Assembly: GCA_025449695.1 (NCBI GenBank)
Contig: JANWIW010000027.1
Coordinates: 283 to 64,282 of the forward strand
DNA: 64,000 bases
Direction: 5' to 3'
Source: Minisyncoccota bacterium
Lineage (GTDB): Bacteria > Patescibacteriota > Minisyncoccia > UBA6257 > 2-01-FULL-56-20
A program made the position numbers and the translations under genes. Positions 15,244 to 54,244 of this stretch are shown here, piece by piece. Within the stretch, counting starts at the first letter, position 1. Each line of letters begins with the position of its first letter. The notes below the pieces were generated by a model. The model was not told the origin of the DNA. It made no database searches and was given only the letters and a program-made list of their open reading frames with translations.

Positions 15244-15357
15244 CTGTCATCCCGGCCTTGCGGTGTCCTTCGAAGCCTAGGCGAAGGAGGGAGCCGGGAT
15301 CCAGACAAGTCATACTGGATTCTGGATAGCTCTCCTGGGCTTCCGGAATGACAAACA
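15244..15357. repeat. TGTCATCCCGGC ... GGCTTCCGGAATGACAA repeat (subfamily 2); copies at 51145-51239, 19889-19927 (half, inverted) and 52485-52534 (partial)
   Basis: 15244-15357 and 51145-51239 align over about 95 bp, with an internal hairpin GCCGGGATCCAG/CTGGATTCCGG. Confidence 0.75.
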
Positions 15358-15462
15358 GGCCTGAAAATAAACCTTACCAGACCATCCTACTTGCGCCGCT
15401 GCCATCGCCAGAATAAAATGATGCCCTAGGGTCCGTTCGGTCAGCCAACCAATCATTTTTCC

Positions 15463-19843: not shown

Positions 19844-20016
19844 TAGGCGTTCGAATGCGCTTGCCGCTACCGTTATTATTCTTTTCAGTGTCATCCCGGA
19901 AGCCCAGCAGGGCTATCCGGGATCCAGCTGAGCGTGAGATGCTCCTCAAAGCATTGATTACCCAATGTTCCCCGCATTTGCGAAAGGCGTTTACCAAAAG
20001 GGGCTACTGGTCTACC

Positions 20017-21720
20017 ATGAGAGCCATGCAAACTCCGGAAGAGTTGCGCGACTACAAGCCCGACTTCGAACCGCACCATTGGACCGACGAGGACAGGCGG
20101 TATCTTTCGCCCTTCGTGACAAACGTGGATGGACTCGTCTCGGTCATCAGCCACAACCTGCCGCCGGAGATCACGGGAGCGCTCTGCTCCCGCGCAAGCC
20201 GCGCCACGGGTTCCCTCACGGAGGTTCTGCTCAAGGAATATATCAAGCCGATTCTGGAAGGGGAGGACAAAGAGCTTGCCGCCGAGTTGAACCGCACCAT
20301 CGAGTTCCTGGAGCGCGGCGGCTTCCGGAAAATCCTGAACAATCAGCGGGCGCAATCCTTCTACGCCCGTTGGCTCTCCCAATACGGCGACGACTCCATC
20401 GCCCAGCTCACCGGGACCCACGTAGTGCTCTGGGGCATCTCGCAGCTTGCCATGAAGTTTCTGGAGGACCGCCGCATTGGCCTGGAGCCCTTGGAGAAGT
20501 CGACCCGTTACGTTAATTTCAGCAACAAGGTCAACGGAAATTACCTGTACTACACCCCGAAGCCCGATCTGGAGAAACTGAACCTGCTTCAGGACTATCG
20601 AGCGACTCTCGACCATCTTTTCGATACGTATGCCGCGCTCTTGCCAAAGCTGCTCGAATGGCTGAAGGTCACCTTCGACGACAAAGAGTCGGTGCTGGAA
20701 AAAAAGGCTTTCGATACCCTGCGGGGTCTTTTACCCATGGCTACCCTCGGCCAGGTCGCATTCCGCGGGAATGCGCAGGCTTTCGAGTATGCCATCAACC
20801 GCATGGCAGGCAGCAATCTCGGCGAGTTCCGCTGGCTCGCCGCGTCTCTGAAGCAGGAATTAGACAAAGAGATCTACTCCCTGCTGCTGCGCCTGGAAGA
20901 CGAGAAAACCAAGCACTACCAGGAGTATCTCTCCCGCCGGCACGACAAGATCCGTGAGTTCATAGGGGAAAAGCAATGGGAAAAAGATGCGCCTGCGGCA
21001 AAGCCGGGCGTGCAGGAGGTCTTGCTTGCGGAATACACTCCCGATGCCGAGGAAAATATCATTGCAGGGATCCTCTTTCCCGAATTCCACGGTAGCTGGG
21101 CGGAGGCGCTGGCTCATGTGAAAAACTTGGATGAGGCCGGCCGCCGGGAGGTCATCAAGCGCTATCTGCCCGGACGGGAGCAGCGCTGGTACAAAGTGGG
21201 CCGGGCCTTCGAGAACGCGTATCTCCGGTTCGAGATCACTATGGACATCGGCGCCTACCGCGACGTCCAGCGCCACCGCATGATGACCCAGGACCGTCAG
21301 CGGTTCTCCACGCATCACGGCTATGCCGTCCCGGCGGAGCTGACCGGTGCCGGACTGGAAACTCCTTATCGCGAGGCGATGGACAAAGCAGCCGAGCTGT
21401 TCCGGAGACTCGAGGGAGCTGATCCCGACCTTGCTCAATATGTGGTGCCTCTCGGTTACCACATCCGTTTCTATCAATGGCAGAACTTCCGACAGTTCTT
21501 CTGGGAGGCCGAATTGCGGACCATCTCCCAAGGACATCCCGATTACCGGACCGTCGAGCAAAAGAAATATCTTCTGGTAAAAGAGAAGTTCCCGCTTCTC
21601 GCCGAGTTCATGCTGGTGGACATGAACGATTACGCCATCGCCCGCCGTGGCACCGAAGATAAGATCGTGGAGAAAGAGAAGAAGATACTGGAGCGGCTGC
21701 AGAATAAGGCCGGAAGCTAG
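20017..21720 (+). CDS. thyX: FAD-dependent thymidylate synthase ThyX-like, long form
   Basis: Thy1 motif RHRMMTQDRQRFS in the C-terminal half; long N-terminal extension as in long ThyX forms; folA directly downstream. Start uncertain (ATG 20017 or 19939; track 19855). Confidence 0.6.
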   Translation: MRAMQTPEELRDYKPDFEPHHWTDEDRRYLSPFVTNVDGLVSVISHNLPPEITGALCSRASRATGSLTEVLLKEYIKPILEGEDKELAAELNRTIEFLERGGFRKILNNQRAQSFYARWLSQYGDDSIAQLTGTHVVLWGISQLAMKFLEDRRIGLEPLEKSTRYVNFSNKVNGNYLYYTPKPDLEKLNLLQDYRATLDHLFDTYAALLPKLLEWLKVTFDDKESVLEKKAFDTLRGLLPMATLGQVAFRGNAQAFEYAINRMAGSNLGEFRWLAASLKQELDKEIYSLLLRLEDEKTKHYQEYLSRRHDKIREFIGEKQWEKDAPAAKPGVQEVLLAEYTPDAEENIIAGILFPEFHGSWAEALAHVKNLDEAGRREVIKRYLPGREQRWYKVGRAFENAYLRFEITMDIGAYRDVQRHRMMTQDRQRFSTHHGYAVPAELTGAGLETPYREAMDKAAELFRRLEGADPDLAQYVVPLGYHIRFYQWQNFRQFFWEAELRTISQGHPDYRTVEQKKYLLVKEKFPLLAEFMLVDMNDYAIARRGTEDKIVEKEKKILERLQNKAGS

Positions 21721-23934: not shown

Positions 23935-24321
23935 GTGGCAAAGCTGCTCTTCACCCGTTATAGATTTGAGGATCTGGAAGTATGGCAAGTCGCCCAATCT
24001 ATTGTGACGGAAACTTATAAACTCACGCGCAGCTTCCCGAGTGACGAGCGTTTTGGATTGACAAGTCAATTCAGAAGGGCCGCGATATCTATCTCTCTAA
24101 ACATCGCCGAAGGAAGCGGCCAGCAGAGTCCGAAAGGCTTTGCGAACTATGTAAATCGAGCAAAGGGCTCGTTGTTGGAATGCGTCGCGTGCGCTAGAAT
24201 TGCGGAACAGGAAGACTTCTCGCGCAACGACGATATGCGCACACTCGTCGTTTTGCTTGAGAAGGAGTATTTCAAACTGATTGCTTTAGAAAAGGCGCTA
24301 CGGAGCAGGATTCACGATTAA
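23935..24321 (+). CDS. four-helix-bundle protein (23S rRNA intervening-sequence protein family)
   Basis: DLEVWQVAQSIVTETYKLTRSFPSDERFGLTSQFRRAAISISLNIAEG matches the IVS four-helix-bundle family; GTG start; flanked by GTTCTA/TAGAAC dyad arrays. Confidence 0.8.
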   Translation: MAKLLFTRYRFEDLEVWQVAQSIVTETYKLTRSFPSDERFGLTSQFRRAAISISLNIAEGSGQQSPKGFANYVNRAKGSLLECVACARIAEQEDFSRNDDMRTLVVLLEKEYFKLIALEKALRSRIHD

Positions 24322-25512: not shown

Positions 25513-26214
25513 ATGAGTTCAAACATGCATCACAAATTCGGCAAGACAATCGTCATGGCCCTGGGTGGCTCTATCGTGTATCCCAGTGAGATCAATTCCC
25601 GGTTCATCCGGGATTTTAAGAGGTTCGTGGAGCGGTTCGTGAAAAAGGGCTACAAGTTCGTGATCGTGGTGGGTGGCGGGAGCATCTGCCGCGTCTATCA
25701 GAAGGCCGCGGCGGAGGTGGCACCTCTGACCGACGAAGACAAGGACTGGCTCGGCATCCACGTCACCCGCCTGAACGCGCACCTCATCCGCACCATCTTC
25801 CGTGACATCGCGAACCCGGTCGTCATAGACACGCGGGGCAAGATCAAGAAGCTGAACCATGCGGTCACCGTCGGCTCCGGCTGGCATCCCGGTTCGTCCA
25901 CCGACCACGTGGCGACCGCGCTCGCTTCCGATTTCAAGATTCCGGAGGTGGTGATCATAGGCAAGCCCGATCACGTCTACGACAAGGACCCCAACAAGTT
26001 CAAGGGCGCGAAGCCCCTGCCGCAGCTTTCCTGGAAGGCATACCGCAAGCTGATCCCTTCCGAATGGACGCCCGGTTTCCACTCGCCGGTGGACCCGCTC
26101 GCGGCGAGGTTCGGCCAGAAGGAAGGCATTGACGCCATCATCGTGAACGGAGACCTGAAGAACCTCCAGGCTCTCCTCGAAGGCAAGGAATTCAGGGGGA
26201 CCGTGATATCGTAG
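25513..26214 (+). CDS. pyrH: amino-acid-kinase family protein, UMP kinase-like
   Basis: KTIVMALGGSIV ... KFVIVVGGGSICR nucleotide-binding loops of the AAK fold; about 230 aa. Confidence 0.6.
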   Translation: MSSNMHHKFGKTIVMALGGSIVYPSEINSRFIRDFKRFVERFVKKGYKFVIVVGGGSICRVYQKAAAEVAPLTDEDKDWLGIHVTRLNAHLIRTIFRDIANPVVIDTRGKIKKLNHAVTVGSGWHPGSSTDHVATALASDFKIPEVVIIGKPDHVYDKDPNKFKGAKPLPQLSWKAYRKLIPSEWTPGFHSPVDPLAARFGQKEGIDAIIVNGDLKNLQALLEGKEFRGTVIS

Positions 26215-26226
26215 CCGCGTTCCGGC

Positions 26227-27147
26227 CTACGCCCCTGCGGTCCTCAGTGCCACTTTCGATTTCCAGAAGAAGAAGCCAATGGTCACGAAGGTCATGAACG
26301 GGGAAACCCAGCTCGGCACGTGAATGCCGAACGCGTCTATGATCATGATCGCGCCGAGGAAGAGGATGGAGTACATGGCGCCGTTCTTCAGATAGATATA
26401 TTTCTTGACCCGGTGGATGTTGCCGATGGTCATCTGCCGGACGACCAAGGCTCCGATGCCGTTCCCGATCAGGATGAGCGGCACGGCCATGGTGAATGCG
26501 AAGGCGCCGAGCACGCCGTCGATCGAGAACGTGGCGTCGATCACCTCGAGGTAGAGCAATTTGCTGAGGTCGGAGCGGTCCTTCGTGACCAAGTCCTTTT
26601 CCCGCGCTTCCGCGTTCTCCTTGAAGCCGTGGGTGATGAAGAAGACCGTCGAGCCTATGACCGCCCCGAAGGCCATAAGCTGATTCTGGGATAGGGAATA
26701 CCACACGAGCGCGGAGAGCACTATGGACACGATGGCGTAGAACCACACGCCGTTCCGCAGGAAGAACTGTTCCGTGCGCGGCAAGCCGAAGTGCTTTTCT
26801 TCCAGGAAGAGCCAATGGAAGAAGAGGAAGACCAGGAACACGCCGCCGCCCATGAGGAGGATGGGCGCCGACCTCTCGATGGATTCCATCACCGCCGGGT
26901 CGCTCGAGAAGGTGGCGGTTAGAGAGCCGAGGAGGCCAAGGGCGGGGTTGAACACCCATACGATGAGCCAGGGCAGGAGGCCTCGGATAAGGAATACGGC
27001 GATGAGCATTCCCCAAAACAGGAACCATTTCCTCGCTTTGGCGCCCATGGTGTTCAATACCTCTGCGTTGATGACGGCATTATCCACGCTCGAAACAGTC
27101 TCGAAGAGCGCGAGGCCGAGCGTGGTGATGATGAGCGACAGGATCAT
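26227..27147 (-). CDS. TerC family integral membrane protein
   Basis: Polytopic; NAVINAEVL and FSIDGVLGAFAFT motifs typical of TerC. Confidence 0.75.
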   Translation of the reverse strand: MILSLIITTLGLALFETVSSVDNAVINAEVLNTMGAKARKWFLFWGMLIAVFLIRGLLPWLIVWVFNPALGLLGSLTATFSSDPAVMESIERSAPILLMGGGVFLVFLFFHWLFLEEKHFGLPRTEQFFLRNGVWFYAIVSIVLSALVWYSLSQNQLMAFGAVIGSTVFFITHGFKENAEAREKDLVTKDRSDLSKLLYLEVIDATFSIDGVLGAFAFTMAVPLILIGNGIGALVVRQMTIGNIHRVKKYIYLKNGAMYSILFLGAIMIIDAFGIHVPSWVSPFMTFVTIGFFFWKSKVALRTAGA

Positions 27148-27226
27148 GGGATGGGTCTAATTATGCCACAGTCTAATTGCCCCTTCCTGTAAGTTGGGTT
27201 AAAATGACCCCGTTCGAAAATCCACA

Positions 27227-27311
27227 GGAGGGGTCGCATAGCGGTCTAGTGCGCACGCTTGGAAAGCGTGTGTACCGAAAGGTACCGAGGGTTCGAATCC
27301 CTCCCCCTCCG
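27227..27311 (+). tRNA. tRNA-Ser (anticodon GGA)
   Basis: Acceptor GGAGGGG/CCCCTCC, anticodon loop TTGGAAA, long variable arm, T-arm GAGGGTTCGAATCCCTC. Confidence 0.7.
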
Positions 27312-27457
27312 CGAGAAGGTCTTATGAGCGAAGCGAGCTAGGGCTTCTCGCGCCCCGCGCTGCGTCCCGCGAAGCTTTAGCGGAGTGGGATTGCTTTGTA
27401 GAACCTTCGTTCGTTGGGTAGTTTTATTTTTGTGGATTCTATGTTGTACTAAACGGT

Positions 27458-28591
27458 ATGATTGATGAGTGGCAGGAAGCCGAGTCTTTTGAAGGAAGCA
27501 CGCTTCATAGTGCGCTGGGAGGGCCCGCGGAGCATCCCGAGGCGAGCGCCAAAAGCGAGTTCGCAGAGACGATATCCCTTCTCAGGTTTTTGAACGAAGG
27601 GGCTCTTCGGGGCGTACTGACACAGTTTCTGACTCAGTTTCCCGGAAGTAGGGAAAGCATGGAGGCAGTCATAAAGAACGTGGCGCGACGCAAGATAGAG
27701 CAAAGGGATCCCGACGAGATAGACGCAATTCTTGATCAGGCTGACAAGAATGGAGCGAATCCCGAGGCGCTGGTACAAATGCTTATGCAGAGTATCTCGC
27801 TGGGTAATAGCAAATTGCGTAGGGACTGGAGTGTTTTCACGGGCGCGACCGCAAATGTACGTTTCGCGTTGTCACACGTAGAGAACGCGGAAGCCGACGT
27901 CGAGAGTGAGCTGAGAGCCCTCGCAAAGGAGAGGTCGGACCACACGGCCAGTATCACCTTTATGAAAAGACTTATACTGAAGAAGCTGCCGGACAGGGCT
28001 AAGGATATCAAAAGATTCTTCGAAGAATCTGATCTTGCGGCAGCGGAGGTTGATTACCGCGCGAGGATTTTCTTCTCTCATGGCCGCGCGGATCTCCATG
28101 ACGCTGGTCCGAAAGGAAAGCGGATGGAGGAGATACTTTCGACGCTGAAGCATGACAAGAAGGTGGAGGTGTGGCAGGACGTACAGGGCATACAAACAGC
28201 GGATGATTTTCAGGAGCGTATCTTAAACGCTATCATCCATTCCGACCGGGCAGTGGTAATGCTCGGCAACGCCTCCATTCGCAGCGAGTGGGTCTTCAGG
28301 GAAATACAGGCCTTTCAGCTTTATGGAATCGATATCGTGCCAATCCTTGTAGAGGATATTGTCCCGCCCGACCAAGAGAAAGAACCTGAAGCATGGGCCC
28401 GCTATCAGGAGATCCGAGAGCGTATAGGCGCACTCAATTATATTGACGTGCGCAAATTAGAACCCTTGCCCTCTGCCGGGAAGGAAAAAGCTTCGGAATC
28501 GGCGGCATTGCGCAAGAAGATCTCGGGCGATTTCGAGAGACTGCTCCCTTTGAACGATCAGGAGCGTTTCGATCGATTCTATAAAGTCTGA
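27458..28591 (+). CDS. TIR-domain protein (C-terminal TIR, N-terminal helical domain of unknown function)
   Basis: TIR box 1 RIFFSHGRAD and catalytic-Glu motif SIRSEWVFREIQ at about aa 205-340; gene is about 50% GC against about 62% in flanks and follows tRNA-Ser. Confidence 0.7.
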   Translation: MIDEWQEAESFEGSTLHSALGGPAEHPEASAKSEFAETISLLRFLNEGALRGVLTQFLTQFPGSRESMEAVIKNVARRKIEQRDPDEIDAILDQADKNGANPEALVQMLMQSISLGNSKLRRDWSVFTGATANVRFALSHVENAEADVESELRALAKERSDHTASITFMKRLILKKLPDRAKDIKRFFEESDLAAAEVDYRARIFFSHGRADLHDAGPKGKRMEEILSTLKHDKKVEVWQDVQGIQTADDFQERILNAIIHSDRAVVMLGNASIRSEWVFREIQAFQLYGIDIVPILVEDIVPPDQEKEPEAWARYQEIRERIGALNYIDVRKLEPLPSAGKEKASESAALRKKISGDFERLLPLNDQERFDRFYKV

Positions 28592-28627
28592 TCTTCAATA
28601 GAGTACCGCAAGGCCAAAATTTCAACA

Positions 28628-28659
28628 GCCGCTCCGTGAGGAGCGGCCGTCGATGTTTT
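28628..28659 (+). terminator. bidirectional terminator between the TIR gene and the convergent operon
   Basis: GCCGCTCC-GTGAG-GAGCGGC followed by CGTCGATGTTTTC. Confidence 0.5.
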
Positions 28660-28677
28660 CGCGATTGAGAATCACGA

Positions 28678-29223
28678 TCAGTTGATGCCGAGGAATCCGC
28701 CGTCGCCTGCGGTGCGGAAGAGGGTCTTCAAGATGTCGTGGGCGGCGAGCCAGTGCGTGGCATCGTCTCCGGTCATGACAGCCGTCACCTTTGCCGTAAG
28801 CGACTCACCCTCCATCTTCTCGATGGCGGCGAGGAGCTTGGCACAGGTGGCCCCCGCGATGACGACCGGCGTTCCATGATCTACCACGTCGATGGCGCGG
28901 ATGAAGGTGGAGAACGGCCGCCGCGTACGAAGCGCGTCCACGGTCGTGCCGCCTACCTTGGCGAGGCCCTCGAGCCACCACGTGGGGGCGCCACTCGGCC
29001 GACGATAGCTGACTCCCGCGCCGTTCTCCGCGACGTAGCAGCCGGATTCGATGCCCCGGCTGAAACCGCGGGTCTTCGTCGACGGGTACACGCCGAAGTG
29101 CTCCATCATGCAGAAGCCCTCGGCGTGGATCTCCCGGTCGCTCATCCTGCCGCCGCCCGGCTTCGGATGCACTTCGTGGGTCACGCGTTGGACGTTGCTC
29201 ATCGCTCGCATAACAATACTCAT
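28678..29223 (-). CDS. hypothetical protein, 181 aa
   Basis: High GC3 on minus; SD GAGAGGAAA upstream of ATG 29223; track start 29319 is an extension. No family recognised. Confidence 0.5.
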   Translation of the reverse strand: MSIVMRAMSNVQRVTHEVHPKPGGGRMSDREIHAEGFCMMEHFGVYPSTKTRGFSRGIESGCYVAENGAGVSYRRPSGAPTWWLEGLAKVGGTTVDALRTRRPFSTFIRAIDVVDHGTPVVIAGATCAKLLAAIEKMEGESLTAKVTAVMTGDDATHWLAAHDILKTLFRTAGDGGFLGIN

Positions 29224-29239
29224 CGTCGTTTCCTCTCTG

Positions 29240-29848
29240 TTACCGCTGGTAGTTCCTGAATTCGATGTCGAGCGTCCGACGGTCGATCCCGATCGCCACC
29301 GAGCCTTCGTCGCGCGCACCCTCGCCGCTTTTGAGGCGAGTGCCGTTCGGCGACAGGGTCATGCGGTCGTGGACGCTGATGTAGACCGTCGTGACGCCTT
29401 CCCGCTCCCACGCGTAATACTTGCAGGTCCAGTGGAACTGGAGCCGGCTCGTCATCCAGCGCGTTTCGATGACGCGCTCCTTGGTGTCGCGGCCGCAGAA
29501 AGATTCGAGGCGTCCTTCCACTTCGCGGATGTCCTTTGCGTCGCCGACGATCTTCTCGATCTCGTCGACTGCGGGAGCGATCTGCTGGCGGAACACGGCG
29601 CGCGTCTGGACGCAGATGAGAAGAATGAGAGCGAGAATTGCGAGAGCGGGCATGAAACCGATGCTGAGCAGACTGCCTGCAGTCGTGGGTTGTCTCGGGG
29701 TCGTGGTCGTCTGAGCTTTCACATTGCCTCCTGTTGTTGGTTGAACTGAAATTTCCTCGGTCGTATGGGCCGAGGACCGGGAAGAAGGCGAGTGAGCGCC
29801 CTCTTCCCGACCTCCGGCTATATCAAGAAGCGTTTCCATATTATACAA
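29240..29848 (-). CDS. hypothetical membrane-anchored protein (S/T/P-rich N-terminus, one TM)
   Basis: TM segment ALAILALILLICV; stop lies 17 nt upstream of the next gene's start (operon). Start may be ATG 29839 rather than TTG 29848. Confidence 0.5.
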   Translation of the reverse strand: MYNMETLLDIAGGREEGAHSPSSRSSAHTTEEISVQPTTGGNVKAQTTTTPRQPTTAGSLLSIGFMPALAILALILLICVQTRAVFRQQIAPAVDEIEKIVGDAKDIREVEGRLESFCGRDTKERVIETRWMTSRLQFHWTCKYYAWEREGVTTVYISVHDRMTLSPNGTRLKSGEGARDEGSVAIGIDRRTLDIEFRNYQR

Positions 29849-29985
29849 TATACACGGTAAATGTCAAAGCAGTGCATTGGATGTGCCCGGAGGTCGAATT
29901 TTGATATAAACTCGCGTGCTCGGCAGCATGCCTGTGGAAAGAGAACTGATCTGCGGGGGCTTCAACACCATCTCCCTATACCCCG

Positions 29986-31191
29986 GTGCTATACTTAGAC
30001 CATACGATGGCTGTTTCTTCTCATAAGGCTCAGAAGATCTATATCGGCGGCTGGTTCCAGCGCACCACCCTCCACCTTTCGGAGGTGTACGATTTCCTGA
30101 AGAGAGGGGAGTCGCCCTTGCCGCTCGACAAGGATAAGCTGAGGACGCTCCACCTGCAGGCGGACATTGCCTCGGTCGCGATGCATCCCGGGAGCCTCGA
30201 TCACATCGGCGTGCGCACGAACGCAGGTATCGAGATCAAGATATACGAAGACGGCCTCGTCCTCTTCAGTAAGGAGAACCTGACCTCCCTCGACGAGGAC
30301 ATCCACGACCTCACGAGTTATTACGAGGAAAAGCTCTCCCCGGGCATAGGCTACATCTTCAGCCTGGGCGCGCCGGTCCCAAAGGAACTCGCTAATATCA
30401 AGACGGTCTATCCGTATTTCATCGTCCTCCATCGCGGCACCCGCAAGGACGTCCAGGCCATCCTGGAGCATTTCCGCGAGGAGGAATACCTGGAGATACG
30501 CAAAAAAGAGTTCGAAATCTACCGGGGCAACAACGTCTATATAGTGAACAACATCTCCGAGCAGATGCCCCAGGTGGAGCGCCTGATCGAGGAGCAGGTC
30601 TTCATGCGCGAGTTCAAAGGCCAGCTCCACCGCTATCTGAACCTCCACCGCATCATCTGGGAGCGCATCGCCGAGGTGAAGGAGAAGGGAGAGATCAAGG
30701 GCGGAGAAGTGGGCGCGTTCAAGGAAAAGGTGGAGAGCTACGCGAAGACCATCAACCTCATCGAGGCGCGCATCGGCCAGATGGGCACGTATCTGCATAC
30801 CCGGGAGAAGATCGCCAGAGAAAGCAAGGATTTCGCGCGCCTCCTTACGGTGCTGGATTTCAAGCACGAGACCTTGTCCGACACGCTGGACTACGTGAAG
30901 GGCATCTGGGGGATGACCAAGAACTATGTGACCTCCACCCTCGATCTCTTTTCGAGCATCCAGGCCAAGAGCACCGAGGCTTCCGTGAAGAACCTGACCA
31001 TCATCACTTCCATGGGCGTCGCGGCGACCCTCGTGAACTTCGCCCAGAAGGTGCCCCAGTTCAACGGGGGCGGCCTGGTCTACGTGGCGATACTCGCCGC
31101 GGTCGGCTACTCCACTGACCGCATCCTGAAGACGATCTACAAACGCCGGATGTACAAGATCAAGGACACGAAGCTCGCGAAAGACCTCTGA
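29986..31191 (+). CDS. CorA-like divalent-cation transporter family protein, divergent (GMN replaced by LVN)
   Basis: N-terminal globular domain, long coiled-coil, two C-terminal TM helices with LTIITSMGVAATLVNFAQKVPQF resembling CorA LTIIS..YGMNF..MPEL. The antisense ORF 29995-30867 is L/D/A-rich and artefactual. Confidence 0.45.
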   Translation: MLYLDHTMAVSSHKAQKIYIGGWFQRTTLHLSEVYDFLKRGESPLPLDKDKLRTLHLQADIASVAMHPGSLDHIGVRTNAGIEIKIYEDGLVLFSKENLTSLDEDIHDLTSYYEEKLSPGIGYIFSLGAPVPKELANIKTVYPYFIVLHRGTRKDVQAILEHFREEEYLEIRKKEFEIYRGNNVYIVNNISEQMPQVERLIEEQVFMREFKGQLHRYLNLHRIIWERIAEVKEKGEIKGGEVGAFKEKVESYAKTINLIEARIGQMGTYLHTREKIARESKDFARLLTVLDFKHETLSDTLDYVKGIWGMTKNYVTSTLDLFSSIQAKSTEASVKNLTIITSMGVAATLVNFAQKVPQFNGGGLVYVAILAAVGYSTDRILKTIYKRRMYKIKDTKLAKDL

Positions 31192-32362: not shown

Positions 32363-34150
32363 ATGGGTCCGGAGACCCCTTCGACGGCTTCAATAAGTTC
32401 ACCGCAAGCAAGCTCAGGGCAAGACCGGGTATGCGCGAACTGCAAGGAACGGTTCACACTTGATCCGGATGATTTTTCTTTTTATCAAAAAATAGAGGTC
32501 CCGGCGCCTAGGTTCTGTCCCGCCTGCCGCAATCAGCGCCGGAGAGCATGGCGGAACGACATCTCTTTCTATAAAAGACAGTGCGATCTTTGCAAGAAGA
32601 ACATTGTCTCCCTCTACTCGCCGGACAAGACCCTTACCGTCTATTGCCAGAAATGCTGGTGGTCGGACGCTTGGGACCCGAAAGCTTACGGGCGAGATTT
32701 CGATTTCTCGCGGCCGTTTTTCGAGCAGTACCGCGAGCTTCAGAACGTGGTGCCCCTGATCGCGCTCATGAACGACGATGGGATAGGGAGCATCAACTGC
32801 GAATACACGCAGAACGTATCCTCGGCAAAGAACTGCTACATGGTGTCCTCTTCCTGGAAGAACGAGGAGTGCGCGTACGACATGCAAATATCCGGTCCGG
32901 AGCTTCGCGAGGTGTTCGATTCCCTGGATATCTTCCAGAAGTGCGAGATGGTGTACGACAGCATCTTTCTGGAGAGCTGTTACCGCGTACGAAACTGCTA
33001 CCGATCGTTCGCGCTCGTTGATTGCGCGTTTTGCCTGGAGTGCCGGGATTGCCAGGACTGCTTCATGTGCGTAGGGCTTCGCCGCAAGCGCTACTGTTTC
33101 AAGAACAAGCAGTATACGAAAGAGGAGTACGAGAAGATACTGGCGGAGTACAGGTTAGATACTTGGGACGGCAGGGAGCGCGCCCGGAAAGAATTCCAGG
33201 AGTTCATCCTGGAATATCCCCGCGAGTTCGCTATCCTCCGGAACTGCGTGAACTGTACGGGCGATCAGATGTTCAACTGCAAGAATATGAAGTATTCCTT
33301 CAATGTGCGGGGAAGCGAGGATACGGCATATTTCGAGAACGGTAATATCATCAAGACAGGATACGACATGGCGACAGGCGGCGAGAACGAAGAATGCTAC
33401 GAGGGCATCACTCCCGACAACGACTATCGGGCATTATTCACCATCTTCTCCTGGAAGAACTCGCATGCTGAGTATTGCGAGAATTGCCACTCTGGACAGA
33501 ATCTTTTCGGATGCTCCAGCCTGCGCGGCGCAAAGTACTGCATCTTGAACAAGGAATACACCAAAGAGGATTATCACGAGCTCCGCATCAGAATCGTCGA
33601 GCATATGAAGAAGACCGGGGAATATGGAGAGTTCTTCCCGGCGAAGCTCTCCCATTTTTGTTATAACGAGACCACTGCCCAGATGTATTTCCCGATCACC
33701 AAAGAAGAAGCACTGGCCAAAGGATATCGCTGGCAGGATAGCTTCCAGTTCACGACCGGCAAAGAGACGATCAAGGTAGAAGCTCTGCCCCAGACCATCG
33801 CGGAGGTGGGTGATGGCATTATGAAAGAGGTGCTTGCTTGTACTAACTGCAAACGTAATTACATCATCGTCCATCAGGAGCTCCAATTCTATCGGCGAAT
33901 GAACCTGCCTTTGCCGCGCCAATGTTTCTACTGCCGCAATGACGAGCGAATGCGTCTTCGGAACCCGTTCCGCCTTTGGCAGAGGCAGTGTGACTGCAAG
34001 GGCGCAGGATCGACTAACGGCATATATGCGAACGGAGAACCCCACTTCCACGGGGAAAAGGCATGTCCCAACACGTTCCAAACCCCCTATGCTCCCGAGC
34101 GCCCGGAGATAGTGTATTGTGAAGAATGCTATCAAGCCGAAGTCGTATGA
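32363..34150 (+). CDS. cysteine-rich multi-zinc-ribbon protein, paralog 1 of 4 (unknown function)
   Basis: 595 aa, about 8% Cys. N-terminal CxxC-x14-FYxK-x3-PxPxxCPxCRxQRR ribbon repeated near the C-terminus; central CxxCxDCxxC clusters each followed by YC(I/F)xNK(Q/E)YTKE(E/D)Y; conserved C-terminus PEIVYCExCYQAEVV. Confidence 0.7.
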   Translation: MGPETPSTASISSPQASSGQDRVCANCKERFTLDPDDFSFYQKIEVPAPRFCPACRNQRRRAWRNDISFYKRQCDLCKKNIVSLYSPDKTLTVYCQKCWWSDAWDPKAYGRDFDFSRPFFEQYRELQNVVPLIALMNDDGIGSINCEYTQNVSSAKNCYMVSSSWKNEECAYDMQISGPELREVFDSLDIFQKCEMVYDSIFLESCYRVRNCYRSFALVDCAFCLECRDCQDCFMCVGLRRKRYCFKNKQYTKEEYEKILAEYRLDTWDGRERARKEFQEFILEYPREFAILRNCVNCTGDQMFNCKNMKYSFNVRGSEDTAYFENGNIIKTGYDMATGGENEECYEGITPDNDYRALFTIFSWKNSHAEYCENCHSGQNLFGCSSLRGAKYCILNKEYTKEDYHELRIRIVEHMKKTGEYGEFFPAKLSHFCYNETTAQMYFPITKEEALAKGYRWQDSFQFTTGKETIKVEALPQTIAEVGDGIMKEVLACTNCKRNYIIVHQELQFYRRMNLPLPRQCFYCRNDERMRLRNPFRLWQRQCDCKGAGSTNGIYANGEPHFHGEKACPNTFQTPYAPERPEIVYCEECYQAEVV

Positions 34151-35901
34151 CCGAAACGCGCACTTGCGGTCATTGCCGGAGATCCTTTGTCGTGGAGGCG
34201 GACGATTTCTCGTTCTACGAAAAACTCAACGTGCCGCCTCCGACCTTCTGTCCGGATTGTCGCAAGCAGCGGCGGTTGGCATGGCGCAATGATAGTACGC
34301 TTTACTCAAGAGCTTGCGGTCTTTGCGATAAGAACACGATATCCATCTACGCGCCAAACGGCCCCATGCAGATCGTCTATTGCCAGAAGTGCTGGTGGTC
34401 CGACAAATGGGACCCCAAAGAGTACGGCGCAGAATACGATTTCTCCAAAACTTTCTTCGAGCAGTTTGCGGAACTTCAGCGGCGCGTTCCCGCACTCGCG
34501 ATGACCAATGACGACGGCATTAGCAGTGTCAATTCTGAATATACCCAGGATTTTGCGCGAGCAAAGAACTGCTACATGTGTTTCATCGGCTGGAAGGTGG
34601 AGGACTGCCTGTACGATTTCTACATCATAGGAGGTAAAGAGATAGTAGACGCGATCAACAGCATGGGGGAATGCGAGTACACTTATGAAACCGTCTATAC
34701 GGAGAAGTGCTATCAGAGCAGATATATCTACTCCTCGGTTTCCGTCTCCGACAGCGCTTTTTGTTATGATTGCAGGGACTGCACGGATTGTTTTATGTGC
34801 GTCGGTTTGCGGCACAAGCGGTATTGTTTCAAGAACAAGCAATACACCAAAGAAGAATACGAGAAAATACTTGCCGATTATCGCTTGGACACATACACCG
34901 GCGTGGAGCGTGCGAAGAAGGAGTTCGCGGACGTATTTTTCAGCAAGCCCAGGCGGTTCGCCATGCTCCGTAACTGCTTCAACTGCACTGGTGATGCGCT
35001 GATCAACGGCAAGAACTCAAAATACTGCTTTAACGTGCAGCGCCCCGAAGAAACCCGGTGGGTGGAGAATGGCGATACGCCGAAAGACAGCTACGATTTG
35101 AGCGTGGGAGGCGAGTTGCAGCAATGTTATGAAGGAATCACTCCGGACCATTCGTACCAAAGCCGCTTTGCCATATTTTCCTGGAGGAATACAGATGTTT
35201 CTTATGTCGACGGCTGTCATGCATCCGAACATCTTTTTGGATGTGCGGGCCTTAAGAAGGGACAGTACTGCATTTTCAACAGGCAATATCCGAAAGAGGA
35301 ATACGAGTCATTGGTAAAAAAGATAAAAGCGCAGATGGATGGTATGCCCTACGCCGACCGGCAAGGCATAAGCTACAAGTTTGGGGAGTTCTTCCCTGCG
35401 GAACTCTCCTATTTCCGATACAACGAGACCGTTGCACAGGAATCCTTCCCTCTTACCAAGGAGAAGGCCTCTGCGGAGGGATTGGATTGGCAGGAGCAAT
35501 TCCAGGTCACGATCGGGAAGGAGACGATCGATATCGCTAAGGTCCCCGATGCGATCGCCGACGTACCCGACTCCATAGTGGACGAGGTGCTTGCATGCGC
35601 AGGATGCGCGAGAAATTATCGCATAGTGCCTGCCGAGCTCAAGTTCTATCGCAGGATGAGGATCCCCCTTCCCCGGCGTTGTTTTTACTGTCGTCAGGCA
35701 GACCGGCTGAAATTCAAGAACCCCCATAAACTGTGGCACAGGCAGTGCCAATGCGCAGGAGAAAAGGAAAGCGGTTTCAAGAACACAGCAGCTCATTTCC
35801 ATGGCAAGAATTCTTGCCCCAATGAATTCGAAACCCCTTATGCTCCCGAGAGCCCCGAGATAGTGTATTGTGAACAGTGTTACCAAGCCGAAGTCGTATG
35901 A
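34147..35901 (+). CDS. cysteine-rich multi-zinc-ribbon protein, paralog 2
   Basis: Start MTETRTCGHC overlaps the paralog-1 stop (ATGA); same architecture. Confidence 0.7.
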   Translation: MTETRTCGHCRRSFVVEADDFSFYEKLNVPPPTFCPDCRKQRRLAWRNDSTLYSRACGLCDKNTISIYAPNGPMQIVYCQKCWWSDKWDPKEYGAEYDFSKTFFEQFAELQRRVPALAMTNDDGISSVNSEYTQDFARAKNCYMCFIGWKVEDCLYDFYIIGGKEIVDAINSMGECEYTYETVYTEKCYQSRYIYSSVSVSDSAFCYDCRDCTDCFMCVGLRHKRYCFKNKQYTKEEYEKILADYRLDTYTGVERAKKEFADVFFSKPRRFAMLRNCFNCTGDALINGKNSKYCFNVQRPEETRWVENGDTPKDSYDLSVGGELQQCYEGITPDHSYQSRFAIFSWRNTDVSYVDGCHASEHLFGCAGLKKGQYCIFNRQYPKEEYESLVKKIKAQMDGMPYADRQGISYKFGEFFPAELSYFRYNETVAQESFPLTKEKASAEGLDWQEQFQVTIGKETIDIAKVPDAIADVPDSIVDEVLACAGCARNYRIVPAELKFYRRMRIPLPRRCFYCRQADRLKFKNPHKLWHRQCQCAGEKESGFKNTAAHFHGKNSCPNEFETPYAPESPEIVYCEQCYQAEVV

Positions 35902-37580
35902 CCGAAACGCGCACTTGCCAGAACTGCAGCCAAGGGTTCTCCATAGAGGACGAGGACTTCAATTTCTACAAGAAGATAGAAGTGCCGCCGCCGACTCTCT
36001 GCCCCGACTGCCGCCAACAGCGTCGTATGGCTCATCGAGACAAAAACTATTTTCTAAGAAACTGCGACAAGTGCGGCAAAAGCTCCATTTCCATTTGGCA
36101 CCCCGACATTAAAGGCTATCTTTTTTATTGCAACGATTGCTGGTGGAAGGATGATTGGGATGCCTTCGAGTACGGGCGGGATTTCGACTTCTCTCGTCCG
36201 TTCTTCGAGCAATTCAACGAGCTGTACAAAGCCGTGCCGAAGCATATCTCGAACGCGATGCTTAATATGAAAAACTCCGACTACTGCATCAATGCCTCGC
36301 GGAGCAAAGACTGTTATATGGCTGACGAGATAGACGAATCAGAGCGTTGCGCCTACGGATACTGCGTCCAGAACTGCAAAGACTGCACAGATTGCCTCTA
36401 TGTCAACGAATGCGAGATAGGCTATGAGCTGGTGAAGTGCGATAACAACTATAAGGTTTTCTATGCCTACGATTCACACGCTTGTAATAACTCCGCGTTC
36501 CTGGCTCATTGTCGGGGCGTTTCAAATTCGCTGTTTTGCACCAATAAATACAACGTCACGAATTACTTGTTCAATGAACCCTCCACCGCAGAGGAAGTGA
36601 AGAAGGCCTGGGACGAAATCTTCTGTGGCAAAAACGGCAAACTCCAGGAGGCGCTCGCCAAGTACCAGGAGATCCTCAAGTCCTCCATCTCTCGTCCGCT
36701 TATCGGTACGAACGTCAAGAACTCATCGGGCAATTTTCTGGTTAACGTCCAGAATTGCAAAGACTGTTATTCGATAGACAACAGTATCAACTGTAAATAC
36801 TGCACGGACATCCATCATTCCAAAGACAGCATGGACGTGCATATTTACATCAGCGAACTGAGCTATGAGAGCCTTCACGCCTGGGGTTATAAACAGCTAT
36901 TCTCGCATCTCCTTTGGAACTGCTCCGATGCTACCTACGCCGACGAATGCCATAACAGCCAAGACCTCTTCGCCTGTTGCGGCCTCAAGAAAAAACAGTT
37001 CTGTATCCTCAACAAGCCTTATAGCAAGGAAGAATATCTGGAGTTGAAAGAAAAGATCATTGCCCACATGAAGCAGACCGGCGAGTACGGCGAATACTTT
37101 CCGGTTTCCATGTCGCCGCACGGCTACAACCACACCTTCGCGCAAGAGTTCTATCCGATGACCGAAGGAGAAGTAAAACAGCGCGGCTGGCAATGGCTTC
37201 CTGAAATCAACATCAGGGACAAGTACAAAGACAAAGTGATCACCCAGCTTCCTGATGATATCGCGGAAACCACACCCGCAATCTGTAATGAGATATTCGA
37301 GTGCGAAGCGAGTGGCAGGTTCTATCGGATAATTCCCGATGAGTACCAGTTTTATAAGAAGCACGGCTTGCCCCTGCCGCGTTTGTCGTCTCAAGAGCGC
37401 GACCATCTGCGTTGGGAGAAAACGAAGCCACGCCATCTATGGGACAGGGAATGTGCCTGTGCGAAGCAGTCCCACTTCCACGGGGCCAGCTCTTGCTCCA
37501 ATGCATTTAGGACCACACATGCTCCCGAGAGCCCCGAGATAGTGTATTGTGAGCAGTGTTACCAAGCTGAAGTCGTATGA
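35898..37580 (+). CDS. cysteine-rich multi-zinc-ribbon protein, paralog 3
   Basis: Start MTETRTCQNC overlaps the paralog-2 stop (ATGA); same architecture, more diverged middle. Confidence 0.7.
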   Translation: MTETRTCQNCSQGFSIEDEDFNFYKKIEVPPPTLCPDCRQQRRMAHRDKNYFLRNCDKCGKSSISIWHPDIKGYLFYCNDCWWKDDWDAFEYGRDFDFSRPFFEQFNELYKAVPKHISNAMLNMKNSDYCINASRSKDCYMADEIDESERCAYGYCVQNCKDCTDCLYVNECEIGYELVKCDNNYKVFYAYDSHACNNSAFLAHCRGVSNSLFCTNKYNVTNYLFNEPSTAEEVKKAWDEIFCGKNGKLQEALAKYQEILKSSISRPLIGTNVKNSSGNFLVNVQNCKDCYSIDNSINCKYCTDIHHSKDSMDVHIYISELSYESLHAWGYKQLFSHLLWNCSDATYADECHNSQDLFACCGLKKKQFCILNKPYSKEEYLELKEKIIAHMKQTGEYGEYFPVSMSPHGYNHTFAQEFYPMTEGEVKQRGWQWLPEINIRDKYKDKVITQLPDDIAETTPAICNEIFECEASGRFYRIIPDEYQFYKKHGLPLPRLSSQERDHLRWEKTKPRHLWDRECACAKQSHFHGASSCSNAFRTTHAPESPEIVYCEQCYQAEVV

Positions 37581-39286
37581 GCAACGAAACCAAAACCTGC
37601 CAAAACTGCAAGAAGGAGTTCGTTATCGAACCGGACAACGCCGCGTTCTGCGCGCACATGCAGGTGCCGCTCCCGACCTGGTGCCCGCCCTGCCGCCGCT
37701 TGCGGCGCATGGGCTGGACCGGCTACAGGATCCTCTATAAAAGGAAATGCGCCTACTCGGGGGAGGATATCATCACCTTCTACCATCCCAACGCTCCGTA
37801 TGTGATCTACAAGCAGGACATATGGTGGAGCGACAAGTGGGACCCCAAGAGCTACGGACGGGACTACGATTTCTCCAAGCCGTTCTTCCAGCAGTTCGAC
37901 GAGCTTCTGCGGTCGGTGCCCCTGCCCTCGCTCCATACGGAGTACACGACTCTCGTGAACAGCGACTACTGCAATGCCGTAGGGGGCCTGAAGAACTGCT
38001 ATCTGGTCTTCCAGTCCGGGGACGGGGCCTCGCATATAGGCCACGAGAATACGGCATACATGCACATGGTGGACGACACGAAGGACAGCATGGACATGTC
38101 CTTCTCCTCGAACTGCGAGCTTTGCTACGAGTGCGTGCGCTGCTTTGGATGCTTCCGGGCGCGCTGGTCCGCGAACTGCGACGAATGCCATAACGTCGCG
38201 TTTTGCCAGAGCTGCATTGGCTGTTCCGACTGCGTCGGCTGCGTGAATTTAAAGAACAAGTCGTATTGCATCTTCAACGAGCAGTATTCCAAGGAAGAGT
38301 ACGAGCGCAAGCTGAAGGAGCTCGATCTGGGATCCCGCGAAGGATTGGACAGGTTCGCGGTGGAATTCGCCAAGTTCGCGGAAAAGATGCCCCATCGCAT
38401 GTTCTACGGCCGGCACAACACTTCTACTTCCGGCGACTACATCTCCAATTCCAAGAACGTCCACGATTCCTACATCGTCCATGGCGCAGAGAACGTGCGC
38501 TACGGGCAGCTGCTGAGCGCGCCCGCGGCCAACGCCTACGACTACACGCTCTTCGGCACGTTTGCGGAGTGGATCTACGAATGCGCGTGGAATGGCTTGA
38601 GCAGCAACACGCTCAAGTTCTGCTTCTGGAACTACCACGCCCATCATCTTGATTACTCCCTCGGCTGCCACGGGTCGGAGAACCTGTTCGGCTGCGTGGG
38701 GGTTCGCAAGGGCTCCTATTGCATCTTGAACAAGCAATATTCCAGGGAGGAGTATCAGGAACTCGTCGCGGATATAAAACAGCAGATGGCGGAAATGCCC
38801 TACGTGGACCGCCTGGGCCGGAACTACTCGTACGGGGAGTTCTTCCCGCCGGAGATATCGCCCTGGACCTTCAACGAGTCTATGGCGTCCCTGGGCTTCC
38901 TCCCTTTGTCCCGCGAGGAAGCCCTGGCGCAGGGGTTTAACTGGCGCGAGGATGATGGCCGCCAGTATCGGGAGCCGACCGCGCCGGTACCGGCAAGTAT
39001 CAAGGATGTTCCCGAAGATTTCTCCAAGGAGATACTGAAGTGCGAGTATTGCGGTAAGAACTACCAGATCATCCCCATGGAATTGGATTTCTATCGCCAG
39101 TGGGACGTTCCCATCCCTTTGCGCTGCCCCTTGTGCAGGGAGAAAGACAGGGTCGCCAGCCTGAACCCCATGGCCATCTACGACCGGGAGTGCATGAAGT
39201 GCGGCAAGTCCATTCAAACCTCCTACGCGCCAGAAAGGAAAGAGATTGTATATTGCGAGACCTGCTATCAAAACGAAGTTGCATAG
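37577..39286 (+). CDS. cysteine-rich multi-zinc-ribbon protein, paralog 4
   Basis: Start MSNETKTCQNC overlaps the paralog-3 stop (ATGA); CIGCSDCVGCVNLKNKSYCIFNEQYSKEEYE; C-terminus IVYCETCYQNEVA. Confidence 0.7.
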   Translation: MSNETKTCQNCKKEFVIEPDNAAFCAHMQVPLPTWCPPCRRLRRMGWTGYRILYKRKCAYSGEDIITFYHPNAPYVIYKQDIWWSDKWDPKSYGRDYDFSKPFFQQFDELLRSVPLPSLHTEYTTLVNSDYCNAVGGLKNCYLVFQSGDGASHIGHENTAYMHMVDDTKDSMDMSFSSNCELCYECVRCFGCFRARWSANCDECHNVAFCQSCIGCSDCVGCVNLKNKSYCIFNEQYSKEEYERKLKELDLGSREGLDRFAVEFAKFAEKMPHRMFYGRHNTSTSGDYISNSKNVHDSYIVHGAENVRYGQLLSAPAANAYDYTLFGTFAEWIYECAWNGLSSNTLKFCFWNYHAHHLDYSLGCHGSENLFGCVGVRKGSYCILNKQYSREEYQELVADIKQQMAEMPYVDRLGRNYSYGEFFPPEISPWTFNESMASLGFLPLSREEALAQGFNWREDDGRQYREPTAPVPASIKDVPEDFSKEILKCEYCGKNYQIIPMELDFYRQWDVPIPLRCPLCREKDRVASLNPMAIYDRECMKCGKSIQTSYAPERKEIVYCETCYQNEVA

Positions 39287-51086: not shown

Positions 51087-51417
51087 GTTAGCCCGCCCAT
51101 GATATCAAAAGAACGGCATTCCGTCGAATTTGGCTGTCCGGGACCTGTCATCCCGGCCTTGAGCCGGGATCCAGGATAACAGGGAAATACTGGATTCCGG
51201 ATAGCCCTGCTGGGCTTCCGGAATGACAAGCGGGCCTATTCGCTTTGTTTTCCGGATAGTATCCGTTCGATTTGACACGCTTCTACATTTGGCGTTGAAT
51301 AAGCAATCGTCCCTTGATAAGCAGGTCCGGAAAACCCAAGGGCAGCTATCTGCGCTTGGGTTTTCCGGACCGAACGCCGAATGCATCCTAACGATGTTGA
51401 AACCTGTGGAGGGACCG

Positions 51418-52653: not shown

Positions 52654-52742
52654 GGAGAGGTGGCTGAGTGGTCGAAAGCGGCTCCTTGCTAAGGAGTTAG
52701 AGGGGTTAAACCCTCTCGTGGGTTCGAATCCCACCCTCTCCG
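52654..52742 (+). tRNA. tRNA-Ser (anticodon GCT)
   Basis: Acceptor GGAGAGG/CCTCTCC, anticodon loop TTGCTAA, long variable arm, T-arm GTGGGTTCGAATCCCAC. Confidence 0.75.
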
Positions 52743-52874
52743 CCTTCGCCCGACGTAGCTTTAGCGAAGTCGGGATTCGCTAAAGCCGTCGGGCTTCGGC
52801 GGACGCAGTCCGCTCTAAAGGACAGCTTCGCCGAACTTTATAAATAGCTGATAAAGCACCTTTAGCATAAGGAT

Positions 52875-53123
52875 GTGTTTTACGTTTACATCTTAAAATG
52901 TGCAGATGGCCACCTTTATACTGGATGTACGGAAAATCTAAAGGAACGCTTATCCCGACATCGGGCCGGCCACGTTCCGGCCACAGCTTCACGCCTGCCT
53001 GTTGAATTAATCTGCTATGTTGCTTTTCATGATAAATATATAGCATTCGCATTCGAGAAATATTTAAAATTTGGTTCAGGGAGAGCATTCTTAAAGAAAC
53101 ATCTAACTATAGGAAGCGCATAG
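52875..53123 (+). CDS. GIY-YIG nuclease family protein (small stand-alone form)
   Basis: MFYVYILKCADGHLYTGCTENLKERLSRH is the classic GIY-YIG N-terminus; 82 aa; lower-GC region after tRNA-Ser. Confidence 0.75.
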   Translation: MFYVYILKCADGHLYTGCTENLKERLSRHRAGHVPATASRLPVELICYVAFHDKYIAFAFEKYLKFGSGRAFLKKHLTIGSA

Positions 53124-53265
53124 TGCCTGCCTGCAGGACACGGCCATGCCACCCGCTCCGCTGTCAAGCACCGTGACATTTGAAAAACCAACCGCCAAAC
53201 CTGTTTTCTTCGAGATGTTGCCAAGGTGCTGATACACTGCGTTGTAGTTGATCGATATGGAAATT

Positions 53266-53345
53266 TTATGTTTAGATAACTCATCGATCTTTGAAAAGCT
53301 TGTGACACCAGAAAAGGCTTGTCAGACCTTTTCTGGCGTCACAAG
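53266..53345 (+). promoter_or_regulatory. conserved 30-nt leader motif plus long hairpin; paralogous copy at 57471-57564
   Basis: TTATGTTTAGATAACTCATCGATCTTTGAAA versus TTATGTTTAGATAATTCACCGATCATTGAAA, each followed by a 16-19-bp stem hairpin, then SD and gene start about 40-110 nt downstream. Confidence 0.5.
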
Positions 53346-53914: not shown

Positions 53915-54244
53915 TTGCATATGGCCGAGCCGCAGGTGGTTCACCGGGTCTTAAAAGGAAGGATGTTTTTAAGTATCTTCTGGGGCGTCCTTATAGTGCC
54001 GTCGTTATTCTTTTTCGTAATGTCCCTGTTCGCGTTCGATGGGAATGGCGCTGGGCAAAGCCCGCTCGTGTGGACGGCCTTCCTGACCTCCTTCACCCTG
54101 CCGCTCGTTCTTCTCATTTGTTGTGTCGGCGGGATCATAGTCTCGCGTGGTGTCCGCACGAAAAGTAAGGATCGCGTGGCGACTATTTTCAGTATCGTCC
54201 CTGTAATCGCGCTCCTCGGGGCCGCACTGATCTTCGTCATATGA
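53915..54244 (+). CDS. small membrane protein
   Basis: Three hydrophobic helices; stop overlaps the lipase start (ATGA). Confidence 0.45.
   Translation: MHMAEPQVVHRVLKGRMFLSIFWGVLIVPSLFFFVMSLFAFDGNGAGQSPLVWTAFLTSFTLPLVLLICCVGGIIVSRGVRTKSKDRVATIFSIVPVIALLGAALIFVI

Follow-up and report, generated by a model that had tools for sequence, protein, structure and literature searches.

What kind of gene is the solitary TIR-domain gene that follows a tRNA-Ser gene in a bacterium of the candidate phyla radiation (CPR), and does it belong to a defence island? The question concerns a stretch of 64,000 nt (hereafter, the window) from a Patescibacteria metagenome-assembled genome of the Paceibacteria/Minisyncoccia group, the genome being seen within these 64 kb. 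An earlier note on this DNA had considered the gene to be a candidate defence island of low guanine-plus-cytosine (GC) content, inserted at tRNA-Ser(GGA). We find that the encoded protein of 377 aa ends in a true TIR fold, in which the residues known to be necessary for NAD+ cleavage are all kept, preceded by a helical region specific to this protein. The reading that we tentatively favour, giving it somewhat less than an even chance, is that of a stand-alone, SpbK-like sensor-plus-TIR NADase, that is, a one-gene abortive-infection module. The parts of the gene are the following.

27458..28591, + strand: gene for the TIR-domain protein, 377 aa, from an ATG (the putative start codon) to a TGA stop (open reading frame list; Pfam TIR_2)
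27458..28057, + strand: N-terminal orphan region, aa 1-200, acidic; the first ~27 aa are probably disordered and are followed by ~9 helices (AlphaFold)
28058..28462, + strand: TIR domain, aa 201-335, with strands at aa 202-207, 236-240, 264-269 and 292-297
28067..28093, + strand: beta-A motif IFFSHGRAD, aa 204-212, with F205 and S207 nearly invariant among TIR relatives
28178..28180, + strand: codon of D241 (WQD motif), invariant in the 42-sequence TIR alignment and paired with Cat1 D33
28283..28303, + strand: alpha-C motif SEWVFRE, aa 276-282, with E282 as the putative catalytic glutamate
28463..28588, + strand: C-terminal tail, aa 336-377, with two predicted helices at a predicted local distance difference test score (pLDDT) of 63-80

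The TIR domain and its active site

The assignment of the C-terminal part rests on profile and structure comparisons that agree with each other. Residues 222-332 match Pfam TIR_2 (PF13676) with E=2.6e-12 and 47.7 bits against a gathering score of 28, and both hallmark motifs reported in the earlier note, IFFSHGRAD and SEWVFRE, are in place, so that its description of a C-terminal TIR domain stands. AlphaFold, when supplied with a 42-sequence alignment of the TIR segment, modelled residues 201-340 at pLDDT ~90 in the alternating beta/alpha, flavodoxin-like arrangement of TIR domains; single-sequence modelling of the protein was too poor for use (pLDDT 45). Foldseek comparison with the PDB at E <= 1e-3 retrieved solely TIR domains (RPPT-TIR, SPARTA TIR-APAZ, RPP1, RPS4, SNC1 and BtpA), with AbTir (E=1.6e-3) and ThsB (2.2e-3) coming next, slightly over the threshold.

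Within the alignment, D241 and E282 are invariant, whereas F205, S207, S276 and P295 are nearly so. D241, S276 and E282 pair in the HMMER alignment with D33, S68 and E74 of Cat1, residues that line the NADase pocket and whose replacement by alanine abolishes function (PMC12162218). The Cat1 pocket is also lined by S7/H8 (PMC12162218), and S207/H208 would be their counterparts, as judged from the motif rather than from the alignment. W278 lies four residues ahead of E282, reproducing the W204/E208 spacing of AbTir, in which the E208A mutant is inactive and W204 is required for cyclisation of ADP-ribose (ADPR; bioRxiv 10.1101/2022.05.07.491051). The active-site set S207/H208, D241, S276, W278 and E282 is thus intact, and the glutamate in alpha-C is accompanied by the Ser, Asp and Trp pocket residues of NAD-cleaving TIRs. 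Since all residues known to be necessary for NAD+ cleavage are kept, the domain has the equipment of an NADase, and perhaps of a cyclase; the conserved residues point to NADase activity of the protein.

Outside the TIR domain, the protein has little company. An exhaustive HMMER search of 1.84 billion representative proteins yielded 185 matches, all confined to residues ~200-346, none of which (0/185) reached residues 1-195; for the C-terminal tail, no relatives emerged. The full-length protein is a singleton in a collection of 5.8 billion clusters; word-indexed homologue searches with the full protein and with a 3-sequence TIR profile each returned the query alone, and tblastn of phage and plasmid collections gave no match. 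In motif detail, the closest TIR domains belong to P0049 (512 aa) and P0118 (536 aa), both of them uncharacterised proteins from metagenomes. At 28-30% identity, they share the FFSHxRxD motif and an insert of 8-17 residues after strand beta-A, but have longer, unrelated N-termini (hhalign probability 0.8%) and form no coherent family in the word-indexed search. The closest relative, P0049 (28% identity, with the same motif and the same insert between beta-A and alpha-A), is likewise encoded by a lone TIR gene amid housekeeping genes. That gene (contig L087, 8001-9539) lies between ABC-F ATPase and 8xMP genes on a contig of 41.6% GC; its product carries a C-terminal TIR domain and, as seen by eye, a degenerate second TIR-like segment near the N-terminus. 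The protein encoded in the window is, accordingly, a new, very divergent TIR_2 protein with a variable N-terminal region and belongs to a known kind; as it stands, the finding is mainly that of one further divergent TIR_2 protein.

Among proteins of solved structure, the one most similar in sequence is Cat1, a CARF-TIR effector of type III CRISPR systems (E=0.022); Cat1 carries its TIR domain at the N-terminus rather than at the C-terminus, and neither a CARF domain nor a nearby CRISPR locus is present here. With ThsB of Thoeris, the TIR protein shares the fold and weak profile similarity; it falls under every curated cut-off, has no ThsA neighbour and bears a 200-aa N-terminal extension that ThsB normally lacks. 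We nevertheless weighed whether the protein could be a ThsB-like signal generator, whose cyclic ADPR-type messenger would be read by an effector located elsewhere or of another type, in a split or non-canonical Thoeris system. Such a system would account for the PF08937 match (20.6 bits; cut-off 21.2), the PADLOC ThsB matches (E=1.2e-3 to 2.5e-2), the similarity to NCBIfam Thoeris type III ThcB4 (E=1.6e-5) and the position of W278 at a cyclase-linked site; moreover, SpbK likewise makes N1-cADPR, for which the receptor is unknown (PMC12847820). However, the ThsB scores are all under the family cut-offs (NF058526: 23.9 vs 220 bits), and Thoeris genes are normally adjacent, whereas the ThsA-like SIR2/SLOG partner for which the earlier note suggested looking did not appear: no ThsA-type SIR2, SLOG or Macro domain is present in the PADLOC matches or among the 25 most frequent of the 67 Pfam families in the 64 window open reading frames, over the 64 kb for which the genome was inspected, and the neighbours of the TIR gene carry no ThsA-like domains. 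We therefore regard a ThsB-like role as unlikely.

The N-terminal region and the case for a one-gene module

The earlier note had described the N-terminal ~200 aa as all-alpha and not recognisable, and had proposed structure prediction of this part. Both AlphaFold runs indeed gave an all-alpha model for residues 1-200, albeit of low confidence (pLDDT mostly <60), and Pfam (residues 1-201, E <= 10) and PHROGs searches of the region returned noise only; phmmer of the region against the 185 TIR matches found nothing significant. The region has a net charge of -10 and no transmembrane segment (maximum Kyte-Doolittle value of 1.26 in a 19-residue window), and the protein lacks a signal peptide. No nucleotide-sensor or APAZ domain of the kind found in TIR-SAVED, TIR-STING, Pycsar TIR, CARF-TIR or SPARTA proteins was detected in residues 1-200, and Pfam and PADLOC scans of the window uncovered no cyclase, CRISPR locus or prokaryotic Argonaute among the neighbours. 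The third-position GC (GC3) stays at ~0.6 all along the open reading frame, which argues for a single unit made up of both the N-terminal and the TIR part.

The model for our favoured reading is SpbK, encoded by ICEBs1 of Bacillus subtilis. Binding of the phage portal by the N-terminal 4-helix bundle of SpbK brings its TIR domains together and thereby turns on NAD+ cleavage, with the spbK gene alone being sufficient for abortive-infection defence (PMC12847820). What the two proteins would have in common is the clustering mechanism of a single-gene TIR protein. They differ in that SpbK has a bundle of 94 aa as opposed to ~200 aa of orphan helices, the N-terminal regions being unrelated and the TIR domains only ~13% identical; SpbK resides in a defined mobile element, whereas none is recognisable here, and functional evidence is confined to SpbK. 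No partner genes were detected in the window, which is what gives the TIR gene its stand-alone status.

In this reading, the protein would be soluble and cytoplasmic, combining the lineage-specific, all-helical region of ~200 aa with a TIR domain competent for catalysis. At rest, its TIR domains would be kept apart or inactive. Upon recognition of a trigger, most plausibly a phage protein, by the N-terminal region, the protein would cluster, and head-to-tail contacts between TIR domains would create composite active sites, in which E282 would cleave NAD+ to nicotinamide and ADP-ribose and/or a cyclic ADPR isomer, with W278 favouring cyclisation; the infected cell would then arrest. We infer that oligomerisation activates the protein and that the N-terminal region acts as its sensor, whereas an anti-phage role is suggested by family precedent only. 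CPR bacteria have been reported to possess dense defence repertoires (PMC12259885). If active, the protein would amount to an immune module of minimal size, a single protein that depletes NAD, in a CPR bacterium, and because the genomes of these bacteria are tiny and their NAD metabolism is limited, NAD depletion could be especially costly to them. Should the reading be true, a structural study of the orphan N-terminal region would be worthwhile, as it would recognise triggers by a module of a new type. It is quite unlikely, in our judgement, that this region defines a new class of phage-sensing or oligomerising modules which, together with P0049-like lone TIRs, would make up a family of one-gene immune sensors in ultrasmall host-dependent bacteria or, alternatively, that the symbiont uses the NADase against its host cell.

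Several considerations weigh against an immune module. The gene lies outside a defence island and on no recognisable mobile element, there is no same-architecture homologue whose context could be compared, and the PADLOC matches of the protein are all sub-threshold (PDC-S66, E=1.2e-4; ThsB models, E of at least 1e-3). TIR domains can also serve as scaffolds, as some do, and much of the TIR_2 family is uncharacterised. Given the low prediction confidence, the N-terminal region may not be a folded sensor domain. Furthermore, no clear Shine-Dalgarno sequence precedes 27458, while a second candidate start, the ATG of codon 68 (27659), is preceded by the motif AGGGAAAG. Finally, the compositional shift of the gene is modest (z = -1.5) and common to several other genes of the window.

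Some of these observations would be equally expected of a non-defence or decaying accessory gene, namely, an ORFan TIR protein acting in NAD or nucleotide metabolism, the toxin of a toxin-antitoxin pair that has escaped recognition, a protein-interaction scaffold, or a transferred gene on its way to being lost. The singleton status of the protein, which has no same-architecture relatives, the housekeeping neighbourhood and the low-confidence N-terminal model all fit with this possibility, and ORFans are common in CPR genomes. Yet the 1134-nt open reading frame is intact, with even codon-position composition throughout, the residues known to be necessary for TIR NADase chemistry are all kept, and the profile assignment is to TIR_2, not to deoxyribosyltransferases. 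We consider such a gene to be an improbable explanation, although one with an appreciable chance.

The domain layout brings to mind yet another group of proteins. AbTir, BtTir and TcpB also combine a helical N-terminus (a coiled coil in AbTir) with a C-terminal TIR domain and are matched by Foldseek (7uxu and 4lzp), and AbTir shares the W-x3-E motif in alpha-C (W278/E282 vs W204/E208). By contrast, there is no sequence similarity to these proteins beyond the TIR domain, AbTir is adjoined by an integrase whereas the gene studied here is not, and the biological role of these proteins is itself unsettled. A corresponding role for our protein would be that of a Tcp/AbTir-like symbiosis effector, an NADase that an episymbiont delivers or exposes so as to manipulate, or else kill, competitors or the bacterium on which it lives. 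The shared layout, the Foldseek matches to BtpA/TcpB and AbTir, and the placement of the genome in Patescibacteria, the cultivated members of which are episymbionts, speak in favour of an effector. Nevertheless, with neither signal peptide nor transmembrane segment in the protein, no secretion-system or toxin-delivery domain in the Pfam matches, no adjoining immunity gene, and a likeness to the Tcp proteins at the level of the TIR fold only, we find this very unlikely.

The tRNA-Ser site and the genomic neighbourhood

The stand-alone, SpbK-like reading leaves the second part of the question, namely, whether the locus is an island. The elements flanking the gene are the following.

27227..27312, + strand: tRNA-Ser(GGA), 86 nt (ARAGORN; Rfam RF00005, 57 bits)
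27313..27457, + strand: intergenic leader from the tRNA to the TIR gene, 51% GC, with a post-tRNA hairpin (~27310-27352) and AT-rich sequence ahead of the ATG
28623..28652, strand undefined: GC-rich hairpin with its core at 28628-28647, separating the TIR gene from the convergent gene at 28678-29319, assessed by fold z-scores

The tRNA adjacency claimed in the earlier note is confirmed by both ARAGORN and Rfam, the open reading frame starting 145 nt 3' of the tRNA end. Insertion at the tRNA and a defence island, by contrast, find no counterpart in the data. The neighbours of the TIR gene are housekeeping or lineage-conserved genes: over ~10 kb to the left, they encode GroEL, a ThyX fusion, DHFR, LemA, a 23S intervening-sequence (23S-IVP-type) protein, HtpX, an amino-acid kinase and DUF475, and over ~10 kb to the right, two unknown convergent genes are followed by those for a 401-aa protein, two small unknowns, four Cys-rich paralogues, Maf and NUDIX. 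PADLOC, run on the 64 open reading frames of the window, reported two PDC-S07 matches and one orphan methyltransferase (as counts, without positions), with no match at E <= 1e-5 in the four genes from 27458 to 31191, and thus no known system near the gene. No integrase, transposase or recombinase domain was found in any open reading frame from 16.7 to 41.6 kb, that is, within ~10 kb on either side. A search of the 64 kb for the tRNA 3' end, allowing up to 3 mismatches, recovered no second copy, the sole other match being the unrelated tRNA-Ser(GCT) itself, and no att-like or other flanking repeats surround the TIR locus. Without integrase, repeats, defence cluster or phage and plasmid relatives, the locus is therefore neither a defence island nor bears a hallmark of site-specific integration; no insertion mechanism is visible, and none of the evidence indicates a route of acquisition.

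The composition of the gene is distinct, albeit modestly so. Its GC content of 52.6% lies below the window mean of 58.2%, below that of the left flank (25513-27226; 58.2%) and below that of the right flank (28678-29848; 62.3%), so that the lower GC content described in the earlier note is borne out, but the contrast is smaller than the ~50% vs ~62% given there. The GC3 provides the clearer signal, being 0.60 in the TIR gene as opposed to 0.80-0.86 in the adjoining genes and a window median of 0.79; with this value, the gene ranks 5th lowest among 61 window open reading frames (z = -1.5). The anomaly is thus real yet modest, and the low-GC block as a whole covers 27313-28677, starting where the tRNA ends and reaching as far as the intergenic hairpin. 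Taken together, these observations illustrate that low GC content and tRNA adjacency are insufficient to call an island.

That the low-GC block begins exactly at the tRNA 3' end also raises the question of an assembly or binning artefact, in which a foreign low-GC fragment of 1.4 kb would have become attached to the tRNA. Owing to their conservation, tRNAs are places where an assembly can change template, and the identical tRNA sequence is present in other organisms. An artefact, however, would require two precise template switches 1.4 kb apart, the second of which is not located at a repeat; the two flanks fit a single Paceibacteria genome, and even at 0.60 the GC3 greatly exceeds that of low-GC contigs with similar tRNAs or TIRs (41-51% GC). 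We deem it extremely unlikely.

On the other side of the gene, the earlier note had seen a terminator proper to the TIR unit. This is right in part: a hairpin does exist there, but its core folds better on the - strand (z = -4.6) than on the + strand (z = -2.9), where the consensus terminator scan made no call; on the - strand, it reads as a 14-bp stem followed by AAAUUUUGG. The better - strand fold and the missing + strand call suggest that the opposing operon either owns the hairpin or has a share in it, and it is probably a bidirectional or opposing-strand terminator. In the leader, the post-tRNA hairpin folds no better than shuffled sequences (z = -0.6), and a consensus promoter scan of 27313-27457 made no call.

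Comparison with other genomes yielded no counterpart of the locus. A scan of a genome collection identified 80 CPR loci with the neighbouring DUF475 gene at 66-74% identity, in none of which (0/80) is the gene adjacent to tRNA-Ser(GGA) or accompanied by a TIR match; at such distances, these loci are unfit for synteny analysis. The 401-aa neighbour (29986-31191, + strand), a conserved hypothetical membrane protein of Paceibacteria, has 2777 relatives across this group, the best of which (69% identical, from Minisyncoccia) are not syntenic, and this wide distribution agrees with the suggestion of the earlier note that the downstream and divergent genes may be unrelated; they are probably native. 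Around its two closest homologues, all that persists is a divergent layout in which a pair of similarly sized genes lies upstream, with no tRNA and no TIR gene, and tblastn detected no similarity of those two upstream genes to the convergent pair of the window. The label 'CorA-like' given to the divergent gene in the earlier note was not sustained: the 401-aa protein has no CorA Pfam match and only a sub-threshold, XaxA-like (alpha-xenorhabdolysin subunit A) similarity over residues 243-334. A metagenome scan with the tRNA 3' half retrieved two contigs carrying the tRNA with 100% (L088) and 94% (L089) identity, both from distant, lower-GC genomes with unrelated genes downstream of it. The TIR gene is absent from every other sampled genome, which fits an accessory or fast-evolving gene and does not thereby show insertion at the site. 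Its position at a poorly conserved spot and its atypical codon composition likewise fit a foreign or fast-evolving accessory gene.

Other features of the window

To the right of the TIR locus, a tandem array (32363-39286, + strand) encodes four paralogous Cys-rich proteins of ~570-595 aa, which match no Pfam family, the one exception being a treble-clef zinc finger with which the fourth protein ends; GC3 is lowered, at 0.63-0.69, in three of the four genes. In other Paceibacteria (L037, L041, L052 and L061), such Cys-rich arrays adjoin DUF475, on the opposite strand and upstream of the DUF475 start, and in the window, DUF475 is parted from the array by a block of 5.2 kb, in which five further genes accompany the tRNA-Ser and the TIR gene.

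To the left, 3 kb from the TIR gene, the gene at 23935-24321 (+ strand) is another compositional outlier (GC3 0.55) and encodes a member of the 23S rRNA intervening-sequence protein family (PF05635, a four-helix bundle; E=3.5e-29), a family that presumably includes accessory (Avd-like) proteins of diversity-generating retroelements. Further upstream, a 621-aa open reading frame (19855-21720, + strand) contains a ThyX domain at residues 392-580 only, preceded by an N-terminal extension of ~390 aa with no Pfam match, and is directly followed by DHFR.

By composition and repeats, the surroundings of the second tRNA-Ser gene, tRNA-Ser(GCT) at 52654-52744, make a better island candidate than the TIR locus. 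Just downstream, a 49-nt direct repeat (53248-53296 / 57453-57501, 80% identical) brackets 4.2 kb, in which no integrase was found, and the lowest-GC open reading frames of the window lie in or beside this span: 52780-53088 (GC3 0.38), 56445-56927 (DUF2975; 0.53) and 57020-57484 (0.41). The same region encodes an LCAT/lipase-like hydrolase (54241-56031). A further repeat of 51 nt (ATACTGGATTCTGGATAGCTCTCCTGGGCTTCCGGAATGACAAACAGGCCT), with 90% identity between copies located 36 kb apart (15312-15362 / 51187-51237), may be a regulatory or RNA element.

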